A DNA stretch of 14,926 bases from Thermoplasmata archaeon (GTDB taxonomy: Archaea; Thermoplasmatota; Thermoplasmata; GCA-020350865), in contig CP070751.1 of NCBI GenBank assembly GCA_020348445.1, positions 3,169,315 to 3,184,240 on the forward strand. The letters are read 5' to 3'. Every line of letters starts with the position of its first letter. The first letter of the stretch is position 1. Made by a program: the position numbers and the translations under genes. The notes under the pieces were generated by a model. That model did not search any database. It was not told the DNA's origin and saw nothing but the letters and a program-made list of their open reading frames with translations. Positions 1 through 14,926 of this stretch are shown here, one piece after another.

Positions 1-82
1 GGGGTGTGTACATACGAATAATAATCCCTGGCGAGGAGATAAGAGGATTAAAGCGTTAAAATGCTTTCCTGTCATAATCAGT

Positions 83-2665
83 GTGCTTTTTATCATATCA
101 ATTACAATGTTGATTGTTTCTGATGAAGATTTAATACTAACCTCAAGTGGTACAACAATTTATGTTCCTAACGATTATCCCACAATTCAAGAAGCTATAA
201 ATGCTGCAAAAGATGGTGATACGGTCTATGTCTACAGCGGGATATATTATGAAAATGTATTGATAAATAAAGCATTAAATTTGACTGGAGAAAATAAGGA
301 ATTTACTATTATCAACGGTGGAGGAGCCGGAAACACAGTTCATATAAGTGCAAATTGGGTGAATATCACAGGATTCACAATCACTGCTGACCACCCTAAT
401 GTTGACGGGCTGGTAGTAAATTCTGATCATGATACCATTGCAGGTAATAAATTTTCAACCACCGAGATTGGAATTTATATCTTGAATTCCAGTGCCATTA
501 ATATCTTTGATAATATTATGGATAGTAATGGAATTTATATTGAAGGTGATCAACTTGAGTACTGGAACACACACGAAATTGACAAGTCAAACATAGTCAA
601 TGATAAACCGATTCATTATTGGAAAAACCAAATAGAGGGCATAGTCCCCTCTGATGGGGGACAGGTTATCCTCGCAAACTGCACGAACGTCATTGTAGAG
701 GGACAAATGATTGCTAATGTTTATGTGGGTATTTACCTTGGATTTTCATTTAACAATTTTATTATAAATAATGGAGTTTCTGCATGCAGGGGCAGACATA
801 GCATCAATCTTTATCGTTCAAGCGGAAATAACCTCATAGGTAATTTTGTTGAAAACAATGCCGGTATTGGTCTTTACCTCCATCATTCTCACGAAAACAA
901 CATATCGGGCAATACATTTATGAACAATTACTTTGATTGTATCCGTTTTACTAATTCACATAGAAATTACATCACAGGCAATTTCATATATTCACCATTC
1001 GGAATAGGGGATGGCATCCATCTCGAACATTCAGATGGTAATTACATTATTAGCAACAACGCTTCATTCAATTCTATTGGTATCCGGTTGTTGTATTCAT
1101 CGAACAACACCATCGAAAACAACACCTGCGATCGGTGCGCTTTTGGTATTATTCTTCGGGAATATTCCCTTGGCAGTACCGTCAAAAACAACCACCTTCA
1201 CCGGAACTCATACGGAATCGATATCAGTGCTTCCAATGAGACCACCATCGTAGGCAACAACATTGCCCACAATGGTGAAGACGGTGTTGATATCGGTTCA
1301 TCCCATAGAAACATCATAACAGGCAACACCATCTTCTCGAACGGCGATTGTGGTATCTCATTCTGGTCGTCCTATGAGAACAGCCTCACTCGCAACAACA
1401 TATCCTTTAACGACGAGTCCGGTATTAAGCTCGAATATTCTGAGAGGCATACCATCCATGACAACAATGTTACGAATAATAAGCATGGATTGTATCTTTA
1501 CAGACTTTCACACAACAACATTATAACAGGCAATACAATATCATCGAATAATTACGACGGTATTCTTCTTGAACTGTCATCGAACAACAAAATAACAGGC
1601 AATGATATTTCCGACAATTTAAGAGGCATAAATCTTTCCTTTTTTTCCTTTCCCTCAAGCAACAATGTTATATTAGGCAACAACATTTCGAACAACAGCC
1701 TAGGCATAAGGCTTTCTTCAGCATTGAACAATGCTATAATGGGTAACAATATTACTTTGAACAGTTTGGATGGCATCCGCTTACTCTCTTCTTCCGACTG
1801 GCATAGCATTATAGGTAATACCGTCTTCTCGAACGGCAACTATGGTTTCTATTTAAATGACTCGACAAATAACAGTATTTACCACAACAACATCATAAAC
1901 AATACAAATCAAGCTTATGATGGCACGAATAATGGAAACCGATGGGACGATGGCTATCCTTCAGGCGGGAATTATTGGTCAGATTTCGATGAATCAAGCG
2001 AAGGAGCATATGATGAGTATAATGGGGAAGATCAAGATAAATTAGGAAGCGATGGTATAGTTGATAATGGGACCATTGGAAGTGGTGGTAAGAATCCCTA
2101 TGTGATCGATTCGAATTCTCAGGACAACTACCCCCTTATCGAGCCCTACAAAAATTATATGATTTTAAAACAGGGGTGGAACCTCATTTCTCTCCCTCTA
2201 ACCCAGGAAGAACAAAACCTTACAAAAGTGCTTGGGTCAATAAATGGATTGTATGATGCTGTTCAATGGTATAATATCACAGACGAAAAAGACCAATGGA
2301 AGCATTACAAAGTAGGTAAGCCCTATGGTAACGATTTATTTGAGCTGAACGAGAAAATGGGCTTTTGGATTCATATCACCCAGCCAGGGGATACGATATT
2401 TTTCTATAATGGCACTCGGTTAGCCGAGAATCAGAACATTGCTTTAAATCCGGGATGGAACATGGTAAGCTATCCCTCTCTGAGCAATAGGGACAGAACC
2501 GCAGCTTTGAACAACATCGATTTTCCATCTGATGTCGATGCGATCTGGACCTATAATTCTCATACACAAAAATGGCAAAAGATGGGACCATCTGATTATT
2601 TCGAGGTCGGAAGAGGATATTACATCCATGCTAAAAGTAAGTGCGATTGGGAGGTCCCGCTTTGA
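83..2665 (+). CDS. Secreted parallel beta-helix (NosD/CASH-type) surface protein with duplicated GWN C-terminal module; the true start is probably upstream of 83
   Basis: 860-aa ORF with N-cap TIYVPNDYPTIQEAINAAKDGDTV, many ~22-aa GIxLxxSxNNxIxxN coils, an NIVNDKPIHYW..GQVILANC insert, a GGNYWSD linker and GWNLISLP/GWNMVSYP repeats. The frame is stop-free back to position 2 and encodes a basic n-region (HTNNNPWRGDKRIKALK) before the hydrophobic stretch. Confidence 0.93.
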   Translation: MLFIISITMLIVSDEDLILTSSGTTIYVPNDYPTIQEAINAAKDGDTVYVYSGIYYENVLINKALNLTGENKEFTIINGGGAGNTVHISANWVNITGFTITADHPNVDGLVVNSDHDTIAGNKFSTTEIGIYILNSSAINIFDNIMDSNGIYIEGDQLEYWNTHEIDKSNIVNDKPIHYWKNQIEGIVPSDGGQVILANCTNVIVEGQMIANVYVGIYLGFSFNNFIINNGVSACRGRHSINLYRSSGNNLIGNFVENNAGIGLYLHHSHENNISGNTFMNNYFDCIRFTNSHRNYITGNFIYSPFGIGDGIHLEHSDGNYIISNNASFNSIGIRLLYSSNNTIENNTCDRCAFGIILREYSLGSTVKNNHLHRNSYGIDISASNETTIVGNNIAHNGEDGVDIGSSHRNIITGNTIFSNGDCGISFWSSYENSLTRNNISFNDESGIKLEYSERHTIHDNNVTNNKHGLYLYRLSHNNIITGNTISSNNYDGILLELSSNNKITGNDISDNLRGINLSFFSFPSSNNVILGNNISNNSLGIRLSSALNNAIMGNNITLNSLDGIRLLSSSDWHSIIGNTVFSNGNYGFYLNDSTNNSIYHNNIINNTNQAYDGTNNGNRWDDGYPSGGNYWSDFDESSEGAYDEYNGEDQDKLGSDGIVDNGTIGSGGKNPYVIDSNSQDNYPLIEPYKNYMILKQGWNLISLPLTQEEQNLTKVLGSINGLYDAVQWYNITDEKDQWKHYKVGKPYGNDLFELNEKMGFWIHITQPGDTIFFYNGTRLAENQNIALNPGWNMVSYPSLSNRDRTAALNNIDFPSDVDAIWTYNSHTQKWQKMGPSDYFEVGRGYYIHAKSKCDWEVPL
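1769..2665 (+). repeat. Colinear 897-nt 3' segment shared by gene 1 and gene 2 (copy at 4261-5157)
   Basis: An identical 33-nt block starts at 1769/4261, and the stop codons (2665/5157) have the same 2492-nt offset. Protein sequences align without gaps. Confidence 0.9.
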
Positions 2666-5550: not shown

Positions 5551-6066
5551 ATGAGAAGATTCATAGCAATATTAGGAACACTATTAATAGCAGCGGTATT
5601 TATCATAAGCGGGTCAGCCGTCGCAGGATATGTAAATGAGTATATACCTGAAGGTTCTTCAGCTGTTACGAATCCAGATGAAGCAGAGGGGCCTGAAGAC
5701 TATACTTATGCCACCGTGGGAATAAATAGTCCTCCCACGCTCGGAGTACTGCTTCTCGATCTAGGTGATGAAGAGAATTGGATGGATGCTGAACAAGATT
5801 TCACGGTTTATGGCTGGGAGTATGGTCCAGGCACTAACATTTTCGAAGAATATACCGTTGTAATATATAACGATGGCCTAACTGCTCGTTACGGACCATA
5901 TTACGGAGATGATGATGAGGATAAAGTCTTTCAAACACCTAGCACCCCCACAAACCCAGATTGGCGCTATATTGAGATCAATGGTACATCAGGGGAAGTC
6001 GATTTTGAGAACCATGATGATACAATCTACGGCCCGGAAATAGATGCAGTGGGTTGGAGAGCCTAA
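5551..6066 (+). CDS. Small secreted acidic protein (YGPEIDAVGW C-terminus), probably a beta-sandwich/jelly-roll; function unknown
   Basis: 171 aa with SD GGAAGGTGA (5536-5544) and a Sec-type signal MRRFIAILGTLLIAAVFIISGSAVA. Clear paralog at 10517..11017. Confidence 0.9.
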   Translation: MRRFIAILGTLLIAAVFIISGSAVAGYVNEYIPEGSSAVTNPDEAEGPEDYTYATVGINSPPTLGVLLLDLGDEENWMDAEQDFTVYGWEYGPGTNIFEEYTVVIYNDGLTARYGPYYGDDDEDKVFQTPSTPTNPDWRYIEINGTSGEVDFENHDDTIYGPEIDAVGWRA

Positions 6067-6100
6067 ACCGTGGAGATAGAACAAATAACATACAAATTAG

Positions 6101-6150
6101 CCTGGGAGCAAAACCGACTCTCAGGTATCTCCCTATTTTTCTATTCTTTT
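6101..6150 (+). terminator. Putative terminator: hairpin plus T-rich tract
   Basis: CCTGGGAG (6101-6108) / CTCTCAGG (6118-6125) form an 8-bp stem with one G-U pair, followed by TATTTTTCTATTCTTTT. Confidence 0.5.
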
Positions 6151-6176
6151 GGGTTAAAAGGCGAAAAGTGTATAAG
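6146..6176 (+). promoter_or_regulatory. Putative BRE/TATA promoter of the beta-helix/CARDB gene
   Basis: CGAAAA (6162-6167) then GTGTATAAG (6168-6176), conserved with 11114-11128 upstream of the paralogous gene, about 50 nt before the SD-preceded start. Confidence 0.55.
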
Positions 6177-6225
6177 ATAGTAAAACAATTGATAAATACG
6201 GTGGTCTAGGTAAAGGAGGGTTGTT

Positions 6226-9039
6226 ACGAATAAAAGACTAGCCTCGATTGAAATCGTATGCCTGGTAATCACCGCAGGATTTCTGGTTTTCATCACTTCT
6301 GAATCGGAGATCGTGAGCGCGACCAACGTATGGTACGTGGGTTCGGGCTTTGGTAACCACTCGGGTACGATAAATGGCGGTATAAGTCTTGCAAGTGATG
6401 GGGATACGGTTTTCGTACATAGCGGAACATATTACGAGAATGTGATTGTAGATAAAACAATAAACCTGACTGGCGAAGATAGGGATAGCACGATAATTGA
6501 TGGGGGTGGGTATGGGGATACGGTAACGGTTATTGTTGATTGGGTGATTATTTCGGGTTTTACTGCCATTGGAAGCAGTGATGAGTGGGATGATGGAGGA
6601 ATAAAGCTTGATATGGTCCAAAACTGTAGGGTCTTTGACAACAACGCATCGGGCTGGAGAAATGGTATCATCCTCCTTTACTCTCACTATAATATCCTCG
6701 CCGATAACATCGGCATCCAGAATAGAGCGCCTTTAGGAGCAATTGGAAATGGCTTATATTTGTTATCTTCCAGCAACAATATCATTATCAACAACACTTT
6801 CTCTACCTGGAATAGAGGCATCTATCTTGGAGCGTCACACGAAAATATCATAAAATGCAACAATTGTTCTTATAATGGGGATGGCATCATGATCAGCGAG
6901 TCCAGCAACAACATTATCGCCAATAACGCCATCTTCAGGAACCCGGTGAGTGGCATTGTAATCACTCATTGCAGTAACGGCTACAATACCATCATCGGTA
7001 ACACCATATTCTCGAATGGGAACGGCATCTGGGTTTATGAATCCAGCTACAACACCATAATCGGTAACACCATCTCCTCGAATGAGGACGGCATCTGGAT
7101 CCGTTATCATGCTAGCTACAACACCTTCATCGGTAACAGCATCTCCTCGAACTGGTACGGTATCCACATCGATTGGTCCAGCTACAACACCATCATCAGT
7201 AACACCATCGTCTCGAGTATATATCACGGCATTTATATCCATCACGACGGTTACAACACAATTTATCATAACGCCTTCACCGATAACAATGGCAGCGGTG
7301 TTCAAGGGTTAGACTATGTAGGTACCAACATTTTGAACGATAGTTATCCCAGCGGAGGAAATTACTGGAGCGATTGGACAACTCCGGATATGGCAAGCGG
7401 TCCGAATCAAAACCTGCCTGGACCTGATGGTATAGTTGATTTTCCTTATCTTCTTGACGGAGGCTCAGGTGCAATGGATTATTATCCTCTGACGACCCCA
7501 CCACCTGATGTGGAAATACCTGATCTGGAAGTAAAAAACAGTGATATAGTCTTTGATCCATCAAGTCCAGTGGGAAATGGCACAATAGTTACGATCAACG
7601 CGACGATTCACAACATGGGTCTTGACGAAGTCAGGGATATTATTGTTAGGTTCTATAATGGCGATCCAAACATGCCCGGAAGTTATCAGATAGGGAGTGA
7701 TAAATATATACCTTCAATCGATGGTGGAAGTAATGCGATTGTTGATGTTCAGTGGAATGCTAGTCCCGATGGCATCCATAATATCTATGTCGTTGTCGAT
7801 CCCGATAATACGATCATAGAAATAAAAGAATGTAATAATGTCGCCTTTAAAGCTCTCGAAGTGATAGAACGCGATAATATACCCCTGACGCTTTACATCA
7901 AAGCAGTGGGAGAAAATATCGTCCTCAACTGGACACAATCTGGAACACAAGGACTGGCATACTACCTAATCTACCGCGCAACTTCACAAACAGGATTTGA
8001 TTTCTCTTCTTTCTGGGTAAATACCTCCTTTCATGATGACAATGGTACCATTCCCCATAGAACCACCTGGAACGACACATATGCTGCATTGGGGAATGCC
8101 TCACAAGAATACTACTATACAATAAGACCTGTTTATGAGAACGGTGATATCGGACCCTCTTCAAGGACAGTTGGAAAATGGACAACGACCTTTTTACCCG
8201 GTGTTTCGACACTAGCCCTCCCACTTGAGCCCCTACAATCAATATGGACCGATAATTTCACGACGGATACAAAAGCTGATTATATCAAATACATGGATCC
8301 CGTGACCCACATGTGGCGGCAGCATGATCTTGGGGACGGCAATAATAACAATACAAAGATGAGATTGGGAGAAGGTTATGAAATCAAGTTCAGCAACAAG
8401 GCAAACTATACCTTTTGCGGGCTGCCTGCTGCCATGATCATTTTCAAAGATGACAAGAGTTTCTTAGGATTTGACCCGATGTTCGAAGCACAGAACCTTG
8501 AAGTTACAATCAGTCCTGATGGGGATGTGAGCTTGACCTGGCAGGAACCTCTAACTATGGCCCCCGGAGATTATTACGAGATTTATTATTCAAATACAAG
8601 GGATGGCTTTTTTAAAGACATTGATAATAATTATTATCGGGTTGAACCTCCTATAGATTTTGGAACCAATACCACCACCCATGTCGGTGCAGGGGCAAAC
8701 AATCCCGGATCGAGGCTGTATTACATGGTGGTTCCTTTCAATGCCCTCGATATCCAAGGGGCGAGCACCTACAGCGTGGGAATCTGGACCGAGGAATATT
8801 CTGAGGGATACGATACGATGGGGATACCGCTGAAACTGGATGTGAACCATACTGCTGATTGGTATTGCGACAATATACCAGATTGCGTTGGAATCAACTA
8901 TTTTAATAACAGCAAGCAGCGGTGGTATTGGCATTCAACTGTAATGCCCGAAGGTGCTTTCGATACTGTTTTGAAGATGACGGAGGGATATCAGATATCG
9001 ACTTCAGATACCACGAAATTCACTTTTATTGGGAAATAA
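6226..9039 (+). CDS. Secreted beta-helix (NosD-type) + CARDB + 2x (FN3-like + divergent GWN-type repeat) surface protein; putative ACG start
   Basis: Track ORF is 6313..9039, but the frame is open back to TAA 6211 and encodes a full signal peptide (T/M)NKRLASIEIVCLVITAGFLVFITSESEIVSA. A CARDB-like block PDLEVKNSDIVF...IYVVVDPDNTIIEIKECNN spans ~7519-7860. FN3-like blocks are IVLNW...YYLIYR...YYYTIRPV and VSLTW...YYEIYYS...YYMVVPF. The CDS is confident; the start position is less so. Confidence 0.9.
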   Translation, partial: TNKRLASIEIVCLVITAGFLVFITSESEIVSATNVWYVGSGFGNHSGTINGGISLASDGDTVFVHSGTYYENVIVDKTINLTGEDRDSTIIDGGGYGDTVTVIVDWVIISGFTAIGSSDEWDDGGIKLDMVQNCRVFDNNASGWRNGIILLYSHYNILADNIGIQNRAPLGAIGNGLYLLSSSNNIIINNTFSTWNRGIYLGASHENIIKCNNCSYNGDGIMISESSNNIIANNAIFRNPVSGIVITHCSNGYNTIIGNTIFSNGNGIWVYESSYNTIIGNTISSNEDGIWIRYHASYNTFIGNSISSNWYGIHIDWSSYNTIISNTIVSSIYHGIYIHHDGYNTIYHNAFTDNNGSGVQGLDYVGTNILNDSYPSGGNYWSDWTTPDMASGPNQNLPGPDGIVDFPYLLDGGSGAMDYYPLTTPPPDVEIPDLEVKNSDIVFDPSSPVGNGTIVTINATIHNMGLDEVRDIIVRFYNGDPNMPGSYQIGSDKYIPSIDGGSNAIVDVQWNASPDGIHNIYVVVDPDNTIIEIKECNNVAFKALEVIERDNIPLTLYIKAVGENIVLNWTQSGTQGLAYYLIYRATSQTGFDFSSFWVNTSFHDDNGTIPHRTTWNDTYAALGNASQEYYYTIRPVYENGDIGPSSRTVGKWTTTFLPGVSTLALPLEPLQSIWTDNFTTDTKADYIKYMDPVTHMWRQHDLGDGNNNNTKMRLGEGYEIKFSNKANYTFCGLPAAMIIFKDDKSFLGFDPMFEAQNLEVTISPDGDVSLTWQEPLTMAPGDYYEIYYSNTRDGFFKDIDNNYYRVEPPIDFGTNTTTHVGAGANNPGSRLYYMVVPFNALDIQGASTYSVGIWTEEYSEGYDTMGIPLKLDVNHTADWYCDNIPDCVGINYFNNSKQRWYWHSTVMPEGAFDTVLKMTEGYQISTSDTTKFTFIGK
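6980..7265 (+). repeat. Five tandem 66/69-nt beta-helix coil repeats inside gene 4
   Basis: GCTACAA(T/C)ACC-type units start at 6980, 7046, 7115, 7181 and 7250, each encoding YNT(I/F)(I/Y).N. Confidence 0.85.
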
Positions 9040-10516: not shown

Positions 10517-11017
10517 ATGAAAAGAATTATTACAATATTGGGAACATTACTAACCGTAATAGTTCTGATGAGTGGATCAGCAGTCGCCCAACCAACATGG
10601 CATTATGCAGTTGATGTAGCAGATTCCGAAGACTGTACGAACCCAGATTGGGCACTCGGTGCGCCAAATCCTTATGATGCTGCCCTTGGGACGAACGGTC
10701 TCGATCCCAAACTCGGATGGATGTTACTCGATCTGGGTAGCGGCAATGAGATGGGGGCCAGCCAAGACTTCACGGTGTATGCCAGCTCTTCTGTGCTTGA
10801 GTATTATCGGTTATATATATGGACTGGTGAGGCTAAAGATCCCCTGTACCCAGAGGATGGTTGGCTCAGGGATGATACACAGGACTATGGTTTTACTACG
10901 CCATCGACCCCAGGAATGGAATGGCGCTATTTCCATTTTGTTGGGATATCAGGGATATGTGATCCAGGGGATCCATACTACGGAGCGGATATAGATGCAG
11001 TCGGCTGGTACGGGTAG
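10517..11017 (+). CDS. Small secreted acidic protein (YGADIDAVGW C-terminus), paralog of 5551..6066
   Basis: 166 aa with SD AGGAGGTGA (10502-10510) and signal MKRIITILGTLLTVIVLMSGSAVA. Shares NPD.A.G, LG..LLDLG, A.QDFTVY, TPSTP, WRY and IDAVGW motifs with its paralog. Confidence 0.9.
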   Translation: MKRIITILGTLLTVIVLMSGSAVAQPTWHYAVDVADSEDCTNPDWALGAPNPYDAALGTNGLDPKLGWMLLDLGSGNEMGASQDFTVYASSSVLEYYRLYIWTGEAKDPLYPEDGWLRDDTQDYGFTTPSTPGMEWRYFHFVGISGICDPGDPYYGADIDAVGWYG

Positions 11018-13262: not shown

Positions 13263-13320
13263 TACACATAACCATATTAAATAAGTAAATTTAGATTTTG
13301 CAGGATAAAGGAGGGGGCGT

Positions 13321-14926
13321 ATACATACGGATAATATCTGGCGAAGAGAGAAAAGGGTTAAAGCGCTAAAACGCTCATCTGTCGTAGTTTGCTTGCTTTT
13401 TATCATATCAATTATTATGTTCATTGCTCCTGATAAAAATCTAATACCAACCTCCATTGGTGCAACAATTTATGTTCCCACTGATTATCCCACAATACAG
13501 GAGGCGATCAATGCGGCCAAGGATGGGGATACTGTTTATGTCTACAGCGGGACATATTATGAGAATGTGGTAATGAATAAGACAATAAATCTCACAGGTG
13601 AAAATCAGGATACCACGATAATTGATGGCGGAAATATGGGAAATGTAATAAATGTTGTCGCGGACTGGGTAAACATCACAGAATTTACTCTTATAGGGAC
13701 TAGCCCCATGACTAGAACAGGTATAAAATTAGACAATGTCCAGAATTGTAGGGTTATGAACAACAATATGTCATCAAACAGTTGGGGTATCGATCTTGAT
13801 GATTCATCAAACAATATTGTTTTAGGCAATAATATATCGACCTATTGCGGCATCAATCTTTGGTTATCCAATAACAACAACATCACAAATAATAAGGTTA
13901 CACCATTGAATAGTCGATGGGGTATTCACGTTGGGCGTTCTTCCAATAATACAATTATAGGTAACAACATAGCCCCAGGTGGTATTCTTATAGGAGGATT
14001 ACAACTGTCACATTTCAATTCTCACAATATACCTACTAGCAATATTGTTAATGGAAAGCCTTTGTATTACTACAAGAATTGCAGCGGCTTTAATATCGAT
14101 GGGATACCAATCGGACAGTTGATTCTTGTCAATTGTTCAGATATCAACGCGAAAAACTTGCATATAAATAAGACCACGTATGGAATAAATGTTGCATACT
14201 CAATGAATATTAACATTACAGACAACAACGTCTCGGGTTGCTATTATGGTATAATTTGCTGGTATTCCAGCGGAATCAACATCTCTGGGAATAAGGTTTC
14301 AAAAGACCTTGTTGGCATCAAACTCATCTCGATATCAAACAGCAATATCACAAAAAATGATATGCCCCTTGAAGGTAATGAAGGTATAAGTCTTTATACA
14401 TCTTCAAACAATAATAATATAATCGGTAATAATGTTTCATTCAGTGAATGGGGGATTGAGCTTCGCGGTTCATCAAACAATAACAATGTGCGAGGTAACA
14501 ATTTATCTTATAATTTTTATAGCATCTCTCTTTCGTGGTCTTCAAGTAATAACACTATAACAAGCAACAAAGCATATTGGAACGGTTGGGGCATCATCAT
14601 TAAAGACTCGGACAATAACATTATTAAAAACAATACTATAATATTGAATTATTTGCGTGGCATAACACTCGAATCATCATCTGATAATAGGATATATCAT
14701 AACAATATTATTAATAATACCGATCAAGCATTCGATGATACCTATAATGGAAACCAATGGGATGATGGCTATCCGAGCGGCGGTAATTACTGGTCAGATT
14801 TCGATGAACCAAGTGAAGGGGCATATGACGATTATCTAGGACGAGAGCAAAATGTGGTGGGAAGGGATGGCATAGTTGATAATGGATCAGTTGCAGGTGG
14901 TGGTAAGAATCCATATGTTATAGATG
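13321..14926 (+). CDS. Secreted parallel beta-helix (NosD/CASH-type) surface protein, 3'-truncated by the window edge (not in ORF track)
   Basis: Frame 1 is open from 13309 to the window end: IHTDNIWRREKRVKALKRSSVVVCLLFIISIIMF...TIYVPTDYPTIQEAINAAKDGDTV...NIVNGKPLYYYKN..GQLILVNC...GGNYWSDFDEPSEGAYD...GGGKNPYVID. The first canonical codons are TTG 13393 and ATG 13417, so the start is uncertain. Confidence 0.92.
   Translation, partial: MHTDNIWRREKRVKALKRSSVVVCLLFIISIIMFIAPDKNLIPTSIGATIYVPTDYPTIQEAINAAKDGDTVYVYSGTYYENVVMNKTINLTGENQDTTIIDGGNMGNVINVVADWVNITEFTLIGTSPMTRTGIKLDNVQNCRVMNNNMSSNSWGIDLDDSSNNIVLGNNISTYCGINLWLSNNNNITNNKVTPLNSRWGIHVGRSSNNTIIGNNIAPGGILIGGLQLSHFNSHNIPTSNIVNGKPLYYYKNCSGFNIDGIPIGQLILVNCSDINAKNLHINKTTYGINVAYSMNINITDNNVSGCYYGIICWYSSGINISGNKVSKDLVGIKLISISNSNITKNDMPLEGNEGISLYTSSNNNNIIGNNVSFSEWGIELRGSSNNNNVRGNNLSYNFYSISLSWSSSNNTITSNKAYWNGWGIIIKDSDNNIIKNNTIILNYLRGITLESSSDNRIYHNNIINNTDQAFDDTYNGNQWDDGYPSGGNYWSDFDEPSEGAYDDYLGREQNVVGRDGIVDNGSVAGGGKNPYVID

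Follow-up and report, generated by a model that had tools for sequence, protein, structure and literature searches.

The window analyzed here is a 14,926-nt stretch of the genome of a Thermoplasmata archaeon (GCA_020348445.1, contig CP070751.1), corresponding to G000:C1:3169315-3184240 within a single-scaffold genome (hereafter G000) of 5.16 Mb and 41.5% G+C. DNA of the G000 type is also present in sediment metagenomes. The scaffold contains 35,300 N in total, so absences in G000 must be read with caution. Our subject is the start of a long plus-strand gene of this window, which encodes a secreted protein that combines a right-handed beta-helix (NosD/PbH1) and a CARDB domain and whose translation very likely begins at an ACG codon placed behind a perfect Shine-Dalgarno (SD) sequence.

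Start region of the gene

The reading frame is bounded upstream by an in-frame TAA at 6211..6213 (+), as determined by reading the sequence together with its translation. Directly behind this stop lies the SD hexamer AGGAGG (6214..6219, +), which is the same in every ACG copy of the gene family, and a 6-nt spacer, GTTGTT (6220..6225, +), separates it from the proposed initiation codon, ACG, at 6226..6228 (+). The ACG is followed by AAT AAA AGA CTA and aligns with ATG in 50 paralogs and orthologs. TAA 6211, AGGAGG, and ACG 6226 are all in the frame of the listed open reading frame (ORF) 6313..9039 (GTG, 908 aa). Translation of 6211-9039 gives a stop, RRVV, and then TNKRLASIEIVCLVITAGFLVFITSESEIVSA, and continues stop-free to 9039; counted from ACG, the full coding sequence (6226..9039, +) consists of 937 codons plus a stop. 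No ATG, GTG, or TTG occurs in frame between TAA 6211 and the GTG at 6313..6315 (+), the first canonical codon and the point at which the public 908-aa gene call begins. This arrangement agrees in every detail with the sequence-only reading, an earlier inspection of the letters of the window that had placed the stop, the SD, the 6-nt gap, the ACG, and the first canonical GTG at these positions and had described the ~900-codon frame as intact.

In G000, the 16S rRNA ends in ...GGAUCACCUCCU, and AGGAGG pairs with its terminal ...CACCUCCU at six of six positions, i.e., as a perfect 6-bp SD. For the 16S rRNA gene itself (692126-692248), only the last ~125 nt are assembled, adjoining a run of N. Upstream of the stop, a promoter-like block (GGGTTAAAAGGCGAAAAGTGTATAAGATAG; 6151..6180, +) is conserved ahead of six orthologous or paralogous heads and ahead of window gene 11188, and it encloses a sequence, GTGTATAAG, at 6168-6176 (+) that resembles a transcription factor B recognition element (BRE) with a TATA box. 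The block is thus a predicted archaeal BRE/TATA promoter, from which a short leader of ~25-30 nt would be transcribed.

One other potential start, TTG 6221, lies between the SD and the ACG. It opens an out-of-frame mini-ORF (6221..6241, +) of six codons and a stop (TTG TTA CGA ATA AAA GAC TAG), as the sequence-only reading had also noted. This TTG is only 1 nt past the SD and is absent from the corresponding head in a related species (G003), which has GTTAGT there; the mini-ORF is probably irrelevant.

Selection on the N-terminal codons

Pfam matches of the focal protein were PF05048 (3e-36; 125.3 bits, cut-off 23.6), PF13229 (7.7e-33; 113.8 bits, cut-off 25.9), and PF07705 (CARDB; 1.4e-13; 51.4 bits, cut-off 22.7). 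All three exceed the Pfam gathering score, supporting membership among NosD/right-handed parallel beta-helix proteins with CARDB. The label "adhesin" that the gene had been given is a guess from these domains. Read from ACG, the protein opens with a putative signal (Sec-type) or anchor peptide, (M)NKRLASIEIVCLVITAGFLVFITSESEIVSA (6226..6321, +), whose n/h/c layout was judged by eye: NKR is followed by LASIEIVCLVITAGFLVFI and then by VSA, with small residues at -3/-1. An uncleaved membrane anchor is also possible. GTG 6313, the first ATG, GTG, or TTG of the frame, sits at the end of this peptide. The public call P0001 (908 aa) begins with MSATNVWYVGSG, i.e., at GTG 6313, and the public call for the close paralog, P0020, starts even later. 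Both calls thereby lose the predicted signal peptide.

The ratio of non-synonymous to synonymous substitution rates (dN/dS) was compared between codons 2-29, i.e., the stretch from ACG to GTG 6313, and the rest of the gene. Values for codons 2-29 were 0.11 against the paralog and 0.16 against the ortholog L113, vs. 0.30 and 0.21, respectively, for the rest of the gene (whole gene: 0.29 and 0.22). Within codons 2-29 of six sequences, synonymous changes were at least as numerous as non-synonymous changes. By this measure, these 28 codons are under purifying selection. The dN/dS values argue that the gene is not a pseudogene and that the N-terminal targeting peptide is under selection.

These results bear on the possibility that ACG 6226 is not used, either because translation begins downstream, at GTG 6313 and without a signal peptide, or because the gene is a silent or archived copy or a pseudogene that has freshly lost its start. 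Public gene callers choose GTG 6313, a GGAG lies 3 nt upstream of it, and the beta-helix family numbers >70 secreted genes in G000, which makes redundancy, and with it a silent copy, plausible. However, codons 2-29 are constrained at least as much as the rest of the gene, and the SD ahead of ACG is perfectly conserved, neither of which would be expected if translation began downstream or the copy were silent. The close paralog has GCG at the position of GTG 6313, which most likely does no more than encode the -3 Val of the predicted cleavage site, and a beta-helix surface protein without an export signal would make little sense. As for a pseudogene, the 937-codon frame is intact, and is also intact in several species, with a whole-gene dN/dS of 0.2-0.3. 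Furthermore, a single-copy, conserved KaiC-like gene (see below) also retains ACG. An unused ACG is very unlikely in view of these observations.

Conservation of ACG among strains and relatives

A sequencing or assembly error, with T as the true base at 6227, was also considered. Logan contigs from two studies (P1 and P3) were identical to the window across 6151-6433. A divergent contig from a third study (P2) showed 92% identity over 6074-6567, and the SD and ACG were unchanged among the 31 of 39 differences listed. Flanking positions had changed in this contig (6224 T>A and 6231 T>C), and between ACG and GTG 6313 the differences listed included seven synonymous and four conservative codon changes. 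The genomes of three further species and five contigs from metagenomes carry the same ACG. With C at 6227 in all of these sequences, the chance of an error is practically negligible, and the caveat of the sequence-only reading that the assembly might be wrong at this base can be set aside.

The codon aligned to ACG was then scored in other members of the family, irrespective of upstream sequence. Among G000 paralogs, it was ATG in 33, ACG in five, and ATC in none; four related species contributed 17 ATG, three ACG (one each in G001, G002, and G003), and one ATC. The heads of the G001, G002, and G003 copies read AAGGAGGGTT(G/A)GT ACG. A pattern scan of metagenome contigs, which permitted AG(A/G)AGG and TA(C/T)G, yielded five more family heads (L098, L113, L118, L150, and L157), all with AGGAGG and ACG, and one head with AGAAGG and ATG. 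By this DNA pattern scan, the public proteins P0004 and P0008 correspond to contigs L157 and L113, respectively. When genomes of GTDB were scanned by pattern, family heads were found in the same genus only (G001-G003), and the other seven matches were chance bacterial ribosome-binding sites.

The closest clade contains six sequences, namely the window gene, its paralog, the G002 ortholog, L098, L113, and L157. ACG is invariant among them while the spacer varies (GTTGTT, GTTGGT, or GTTGAT), as does the promoter-like block, and the codons following ACG vary synonymously (AAT/AAC, AAA/AAG, AGA/AGG, and CTA/CTG/TTG for N, K, R, and L). Orthologs with as little as 64-72% amino-acid identity share the ACG. 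An alignment of orthologs at this codon had been proposed in the sequence-only reading; it shows ACG across strains and species, with ATG in the 50 paralogs and orthologs mentioned above. The scenario in which all orthologs have ATG and the present allele is under relaxed selection fails, as the closest orthologs carry ACG.

A quick maximum-likelihood tree was calculated from 60 N-terminal regions, with rows <150 aa excluded (including the G002 ortholog L058). On this tree, the ACG copies require five changes between ATG and ACG, at least three of which are forced by well-supported branches. Since three to five changes are required, the ACG copies do not represent a single lineage. Such alternation of ATG and ACG between paralogs could conceivably reflect phase variation, with a single base at the start codon switching ON and OFF among members of a population; a single-base ON/OFF switch had been suggested from the sequence alone. 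However, no T was seen at 6227 in the contigs of three studies (although rare variants may go unseen in contigs), ACG is fixed across species, in orthologs as diverged as those above and amid many neighboring sites that differ, and no repeat tract or inverted repeat lies near 6227 that would raise its mutation rate. We therefore abandoned the switch, which is highly improbable.

Start codons and Shine-Dalgarno strength

An exact GGAGG was found upstream of nine of nine family copies with ACG or ATC and of six of six copies with GTG or TTG, vs. only eight of the 47 copies with ATG (ACG/ATC vs. ATG, Fisher p = 3.2e-6, this p-value, like the one given below, being an upper bound on the strength of the evidence). 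The median predicted energy of the SD:anti-SD duplex was -10.5 kcal/mol for ACG copies vs. -5.9 kcal/mol for ATG copies, and a typical ATG head (AGAAGGGTTGGT ATG) and an ACG head (AGGAGGGTTGGT ACG) are two bases apart. ATG copies accept any SD, whereas weak start codons are confined to a strong SD. In the sequence-only reading, non-AUG initiation was thought to lower expression. That ACG is strictly accompanied by a perfect SD speaks for compensation instead and not simply for low output; weak start codon and strong SD would then jointly set the rate of initiation.

Sites of the form GGAGG-N6-8-X were collected from the whole G000 genome. A site was counted as start-like if an ORF of >=150 codons began there immediately behind an in-frame stop and no canonical start was close by, and the share of start-like sites was determined for each codon X. 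This share was 13% for ATG, 4.1% for TTG, 2.1% for ACG, 1.8% for GTG, 0.7% for ATA and ATT, and 0.5% for ATC and CTG, vs. a background of 0.15% for all other codons. For ACG against background, the odds ratio was 14 (p = 1.5e-6), values that are inflated by paralogs; seven ACG sites were counted, of which four are focal-family members. Behind a strong SD, ACG is as start-like as GTG.

ACG and near-cognate codons elsewhere in the genome

The genus very probably shares ACG starts across at least four gene families, judging from sequence comparison. A second head family has an unrelated leader, GGAGGGGGCGTATACAT ACG, with ACG in eight G000 copies, two of which (at 14-16 and 13327-13329) are in the window. 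ATG or GTG takes the place of ACG in four copies whose SD is degenerate (GGAAGAGG or GGAAAAGG), and a G003 copy retains ACG. The first window copy heads window gene 1 (frame 2..2665), with ACG at 14..16 (+) and its SD lost in the N run just before the window. The other heads the last window gene (13309..13329, +) and consists of AGGAGG at 13309-13314, ATA at 13321, and ACG at 13327, the ACG lying 12 nt after GGAGG and 9 nt after GGAGGGGG. ATA 13321 was considered as the start of this gene and ruled out: the ATA position varies in paralogs (ATA, ATT, GTA, and TAA) and ACG 13327 is conserved.

The KaiC-like (DUF7090) gene is present in single copy at G000:C1:254190-254756 (L166:101-667) and reads ...GGAGGGATTTAA ACG AGT TTA, the ACG adjoining the TAA that ends the gene before it. 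Five of five species of the genus have this ACG, and the following codons vary synonymously. In other Thermoplasmata families, 25 orthologs were examined; the majority carry ATG, GTG, or TTG at that place or a few codons from it, and the gene arrangement is the same where traceable. Since ACG is genus-wide and canonical codons are found outside, the ACG of this gene would have arisen once, in the ancestor of the genus, and been kept although the gene is a conserved, cytoplasmic one and not a surface-protein gene. A further putative ACG start, at G000 position 3963803, was also confirmed. A membrane-protein gene at genome position 211026 likewise has ACG 7 nt past GGAGG. Its G003 ortholog has ACG 7 nt past GGGGG, with diverged residues thereafter; the G005 N-terminus was not alignable, and in G001 a canonical ATG start lies close by. 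For the gene at 2874908, with ACG 7 nt past GGAGG, no alignable N-terminus was found in relatives.

Other intact G000 genes have ATA, ATT, ATC, or CTG 7 nt past GGAGG and no canonical start, for example at 2807867(-), 2701256(-), 1804482(+), 817175(+), 2526516(-), and 2603224(+). The examples include, with ATA, two signal-peptide proteins and a TiaS-like gene; with ATT, pilin-like genes; with ATC, a radical-SAM-like gene; and with CTG, a Rossmann-fold gene. Near-cognate starts appear to be a general feature of G000.

These codons help to evaluate C-to-U editing of the mRNA, which would convert ACG into AUG as in plant organelles and leave initiation canonical at the RNA level. Every focal case is ACG, a single C-to-U step from AUG. 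However, the ATA, ATT, ATC, and CTG starts of G000 are beyond repair by C-to-U conversion, and a strict need for a perfect SD befits a weak codon rather than a restored AUG. We know of no C-to-U editing of mRNA in archaea, and consider this explanation very unlikely.

Initiation machinery

G000 encodes an initiator-like tRNA with anticodon CAU and a GGG/CCC anticodon stem. A dedicated initiator tRNA that reads ACG was ruled out: the sole tRNA-Thr(CGU) has an ordinary anticodon stem and is an elongator (the assembly has gaps). Loss of synthesis of N6-threonylcarbamoyladenosine (t6A) was likewise discarded, with Kae1/TsaD and Sua5 both present. An altered aIF1 was also considered; aIF1 is present and displays no notable genus-specific changes in an alignment with 19 other Thermoplasmata.

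A dense, one-stranded array of about 20-25 tRNA genes was also observed at G000:C1:4640570-4643566. It holds a second CAU tRNA, again with a GGG/CCC anticodon stem, whose anticodon loop (CCCATGA) and acceptor stem are unusual. The array may be part of a mobile element or provirus.

Neighboring genes in the window

Two small secreted proteins are encoded at 5551-6066 (171 aa) and 10517-11017 (166 aa). They are 43% identical, have no Pfam match, and end in ...IDAVGW. Each precedes a beta-helix gene with the conserved promoter-like block, and the pair looks like a repeated two-gene module. Window gene 2, listed with a start at GTG 2641, probably starts at TTG 2662, 7 nt past GGGAGG (2649-2654) and overlapping the TGA of gene 1 (TTGA).

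Discussion

Taken together, the data favor ACG 6226 as the true translation start of the beta-helix gene, and we have good confidence in SD-guided, near-cognate initiation by the initiator tRNA as its basis. An mRNA with a short leader would pair through AGGAGG with the 16S rRNA 3' terminus, and the ACG that follows after the 6-nt spacer would thereby come to lie in the P site. There, Met-tRNAi (anticodon CAU) would accept ACG despite one central C:A mismatch, and the protein would begin with Met and bear the entire signal peptide. Decoding by Met-tRNAi is suggested because ACG-initiated green fluorescent protein (GFP) carried mainly Met in E. coli. The non-AUG initiation proposed in the sequence-only reading thus gains comparative support, i.e., a conserved ACG, ATG in paralogs, a perfect SD, and constrained codons thereafter.

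Several points weigh against this conclusion. GTG 6313 is retained in five of six close relatives, although it also encodes the Val expected at -3. Contig L157, which has AGGAGG-GTTGAT-ACG, also has an ATG four codons on (R-M-A-S-I-E-I), where the public protein P0004 starts; this copy is possibly reverting to a canonical start, and its ATG may be used. Paralogs and shared head cassettes are not independent of one another, and segments may be exchanged between them. Some of the additional ACG cases came from a scan that was itself anchored on GGAGG, and the P2 comparison was based on 31 of 39 differences, although other independent sequences cover the same ground. From experiment, aIF1 of Sulfolobus rejects AUU in vitro (PMC4705826), and in E. 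coli, initiation at ACG amounts to just 0.1-1% of that at AUG (Hecht et al., bioRxiv 10.1101/063800). Weighing all of this, we judge that the feature very probably reflects real near-cognate initiation, as far as sequence comparison can tell. A broader statement, which we hold to be likely, is that ACG serves as a regular, selected start in this genus, in ~4% of GGAGG-led genes, decoded by Met-tRNAi, and tolerated only with a near-perfect SD.

If ACG, together with ATA, ATT, ATC, and CTG, is a real class of archaeal start codons, current gene callers misplace starts. To our knowledge, ACG is not in the start list of NCBI table 11; the natural set of archaeal starts would then be wider than that table, and gene finders would systematically shorten such proteins. 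In the present case, the public call drops the whole signal peptide and turns a secreted surface protein into an apparently cytoplasmic one. For uncultured archaea, misplaced starts of this kind would distort the prediction of localization and of N-terminal domains, and perhaps also estimates of genome completeness. The genus would also offer a natural test bed in which eukaryote-like aIF1/aIF2 and a bacterial-type SD together set the stringency of start-codon choice, and the pairs of ATG with a weak SD and ACG with a strong SD within one gene family are ready-made constructs for comparison.

Near-cognate initiation at ACG is known from eukaryotes and their viruses, e.g., VP2 of adeno-associated virus (AAV) and C' of Sendai virus, where Met-tRNAi bound by eIF2 is checked by eIF1. 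The likeness is that an initiator tRNA reads ACG with one mismatch, and archaea have machinery of the aIF2/aIF1/aIF1A type (PMC4705826). However, positioning in our archaeon would depend on SD pairing at a fixed 6-7 nt (or, for the second head family, 12 nt) instead of on scanning and Kozak context, and ACG would be the only start of the gene rather than the alternative start of an isoform. A weak start behind an SD is also known from E. coli infC, which uses AUU; unlike infC and its product IF3, the genes described here show no sign of an autoregulatory loop. Plant organelles, in turn, have C-to-U machinery that edits ACG start codons to AUG. They resemble our case in having a genomic ACG at the initiator position, but editing would leave the ATA, ATT, ATC, and CTG starts of G000 unexplained.

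According to reviews, archaea use AUG, GUG, and UUG (PMC4705826), and full-text searches of the literature turned up no paper describing ACG as a start codon naturally used in archaea. Ribosome profiling of Haloferax volcanii placed ~30% of putative alternative initiation sites at near-cognate codons, which that study left out of consideration as potentially false positives (Gelsinger et al. 2020, PMC7261190). Those sites are mostly alternative or internal, whereas the evidence here is evolutionary and concerns the main start of conserved genes. When all 64 codons were assayed in E. coli, mass spectrometry revealed mostly Met at the N-terminus (bioRxiv 10.1101/063800). That assay, like our data, speaks for the ability of ACG to initiate; there, however, ACG was not a natural start, while here it would be the selection-conserved sole start of intact genes. 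The closest parallel concerns GUG and UUG starts, for which compensatory evolution with SD strength has been described (Belinky et al. 2017, PMC5622118). As in that study, a weaker start codon goes together with a stronger and better conserved SD in our gene family (GTG/TTG 6/6 and ACG/ATC 9/9, vs. ATG 8/47). ACG was not considered there, and the present data both match the compensation it describes and extend it to ACG.

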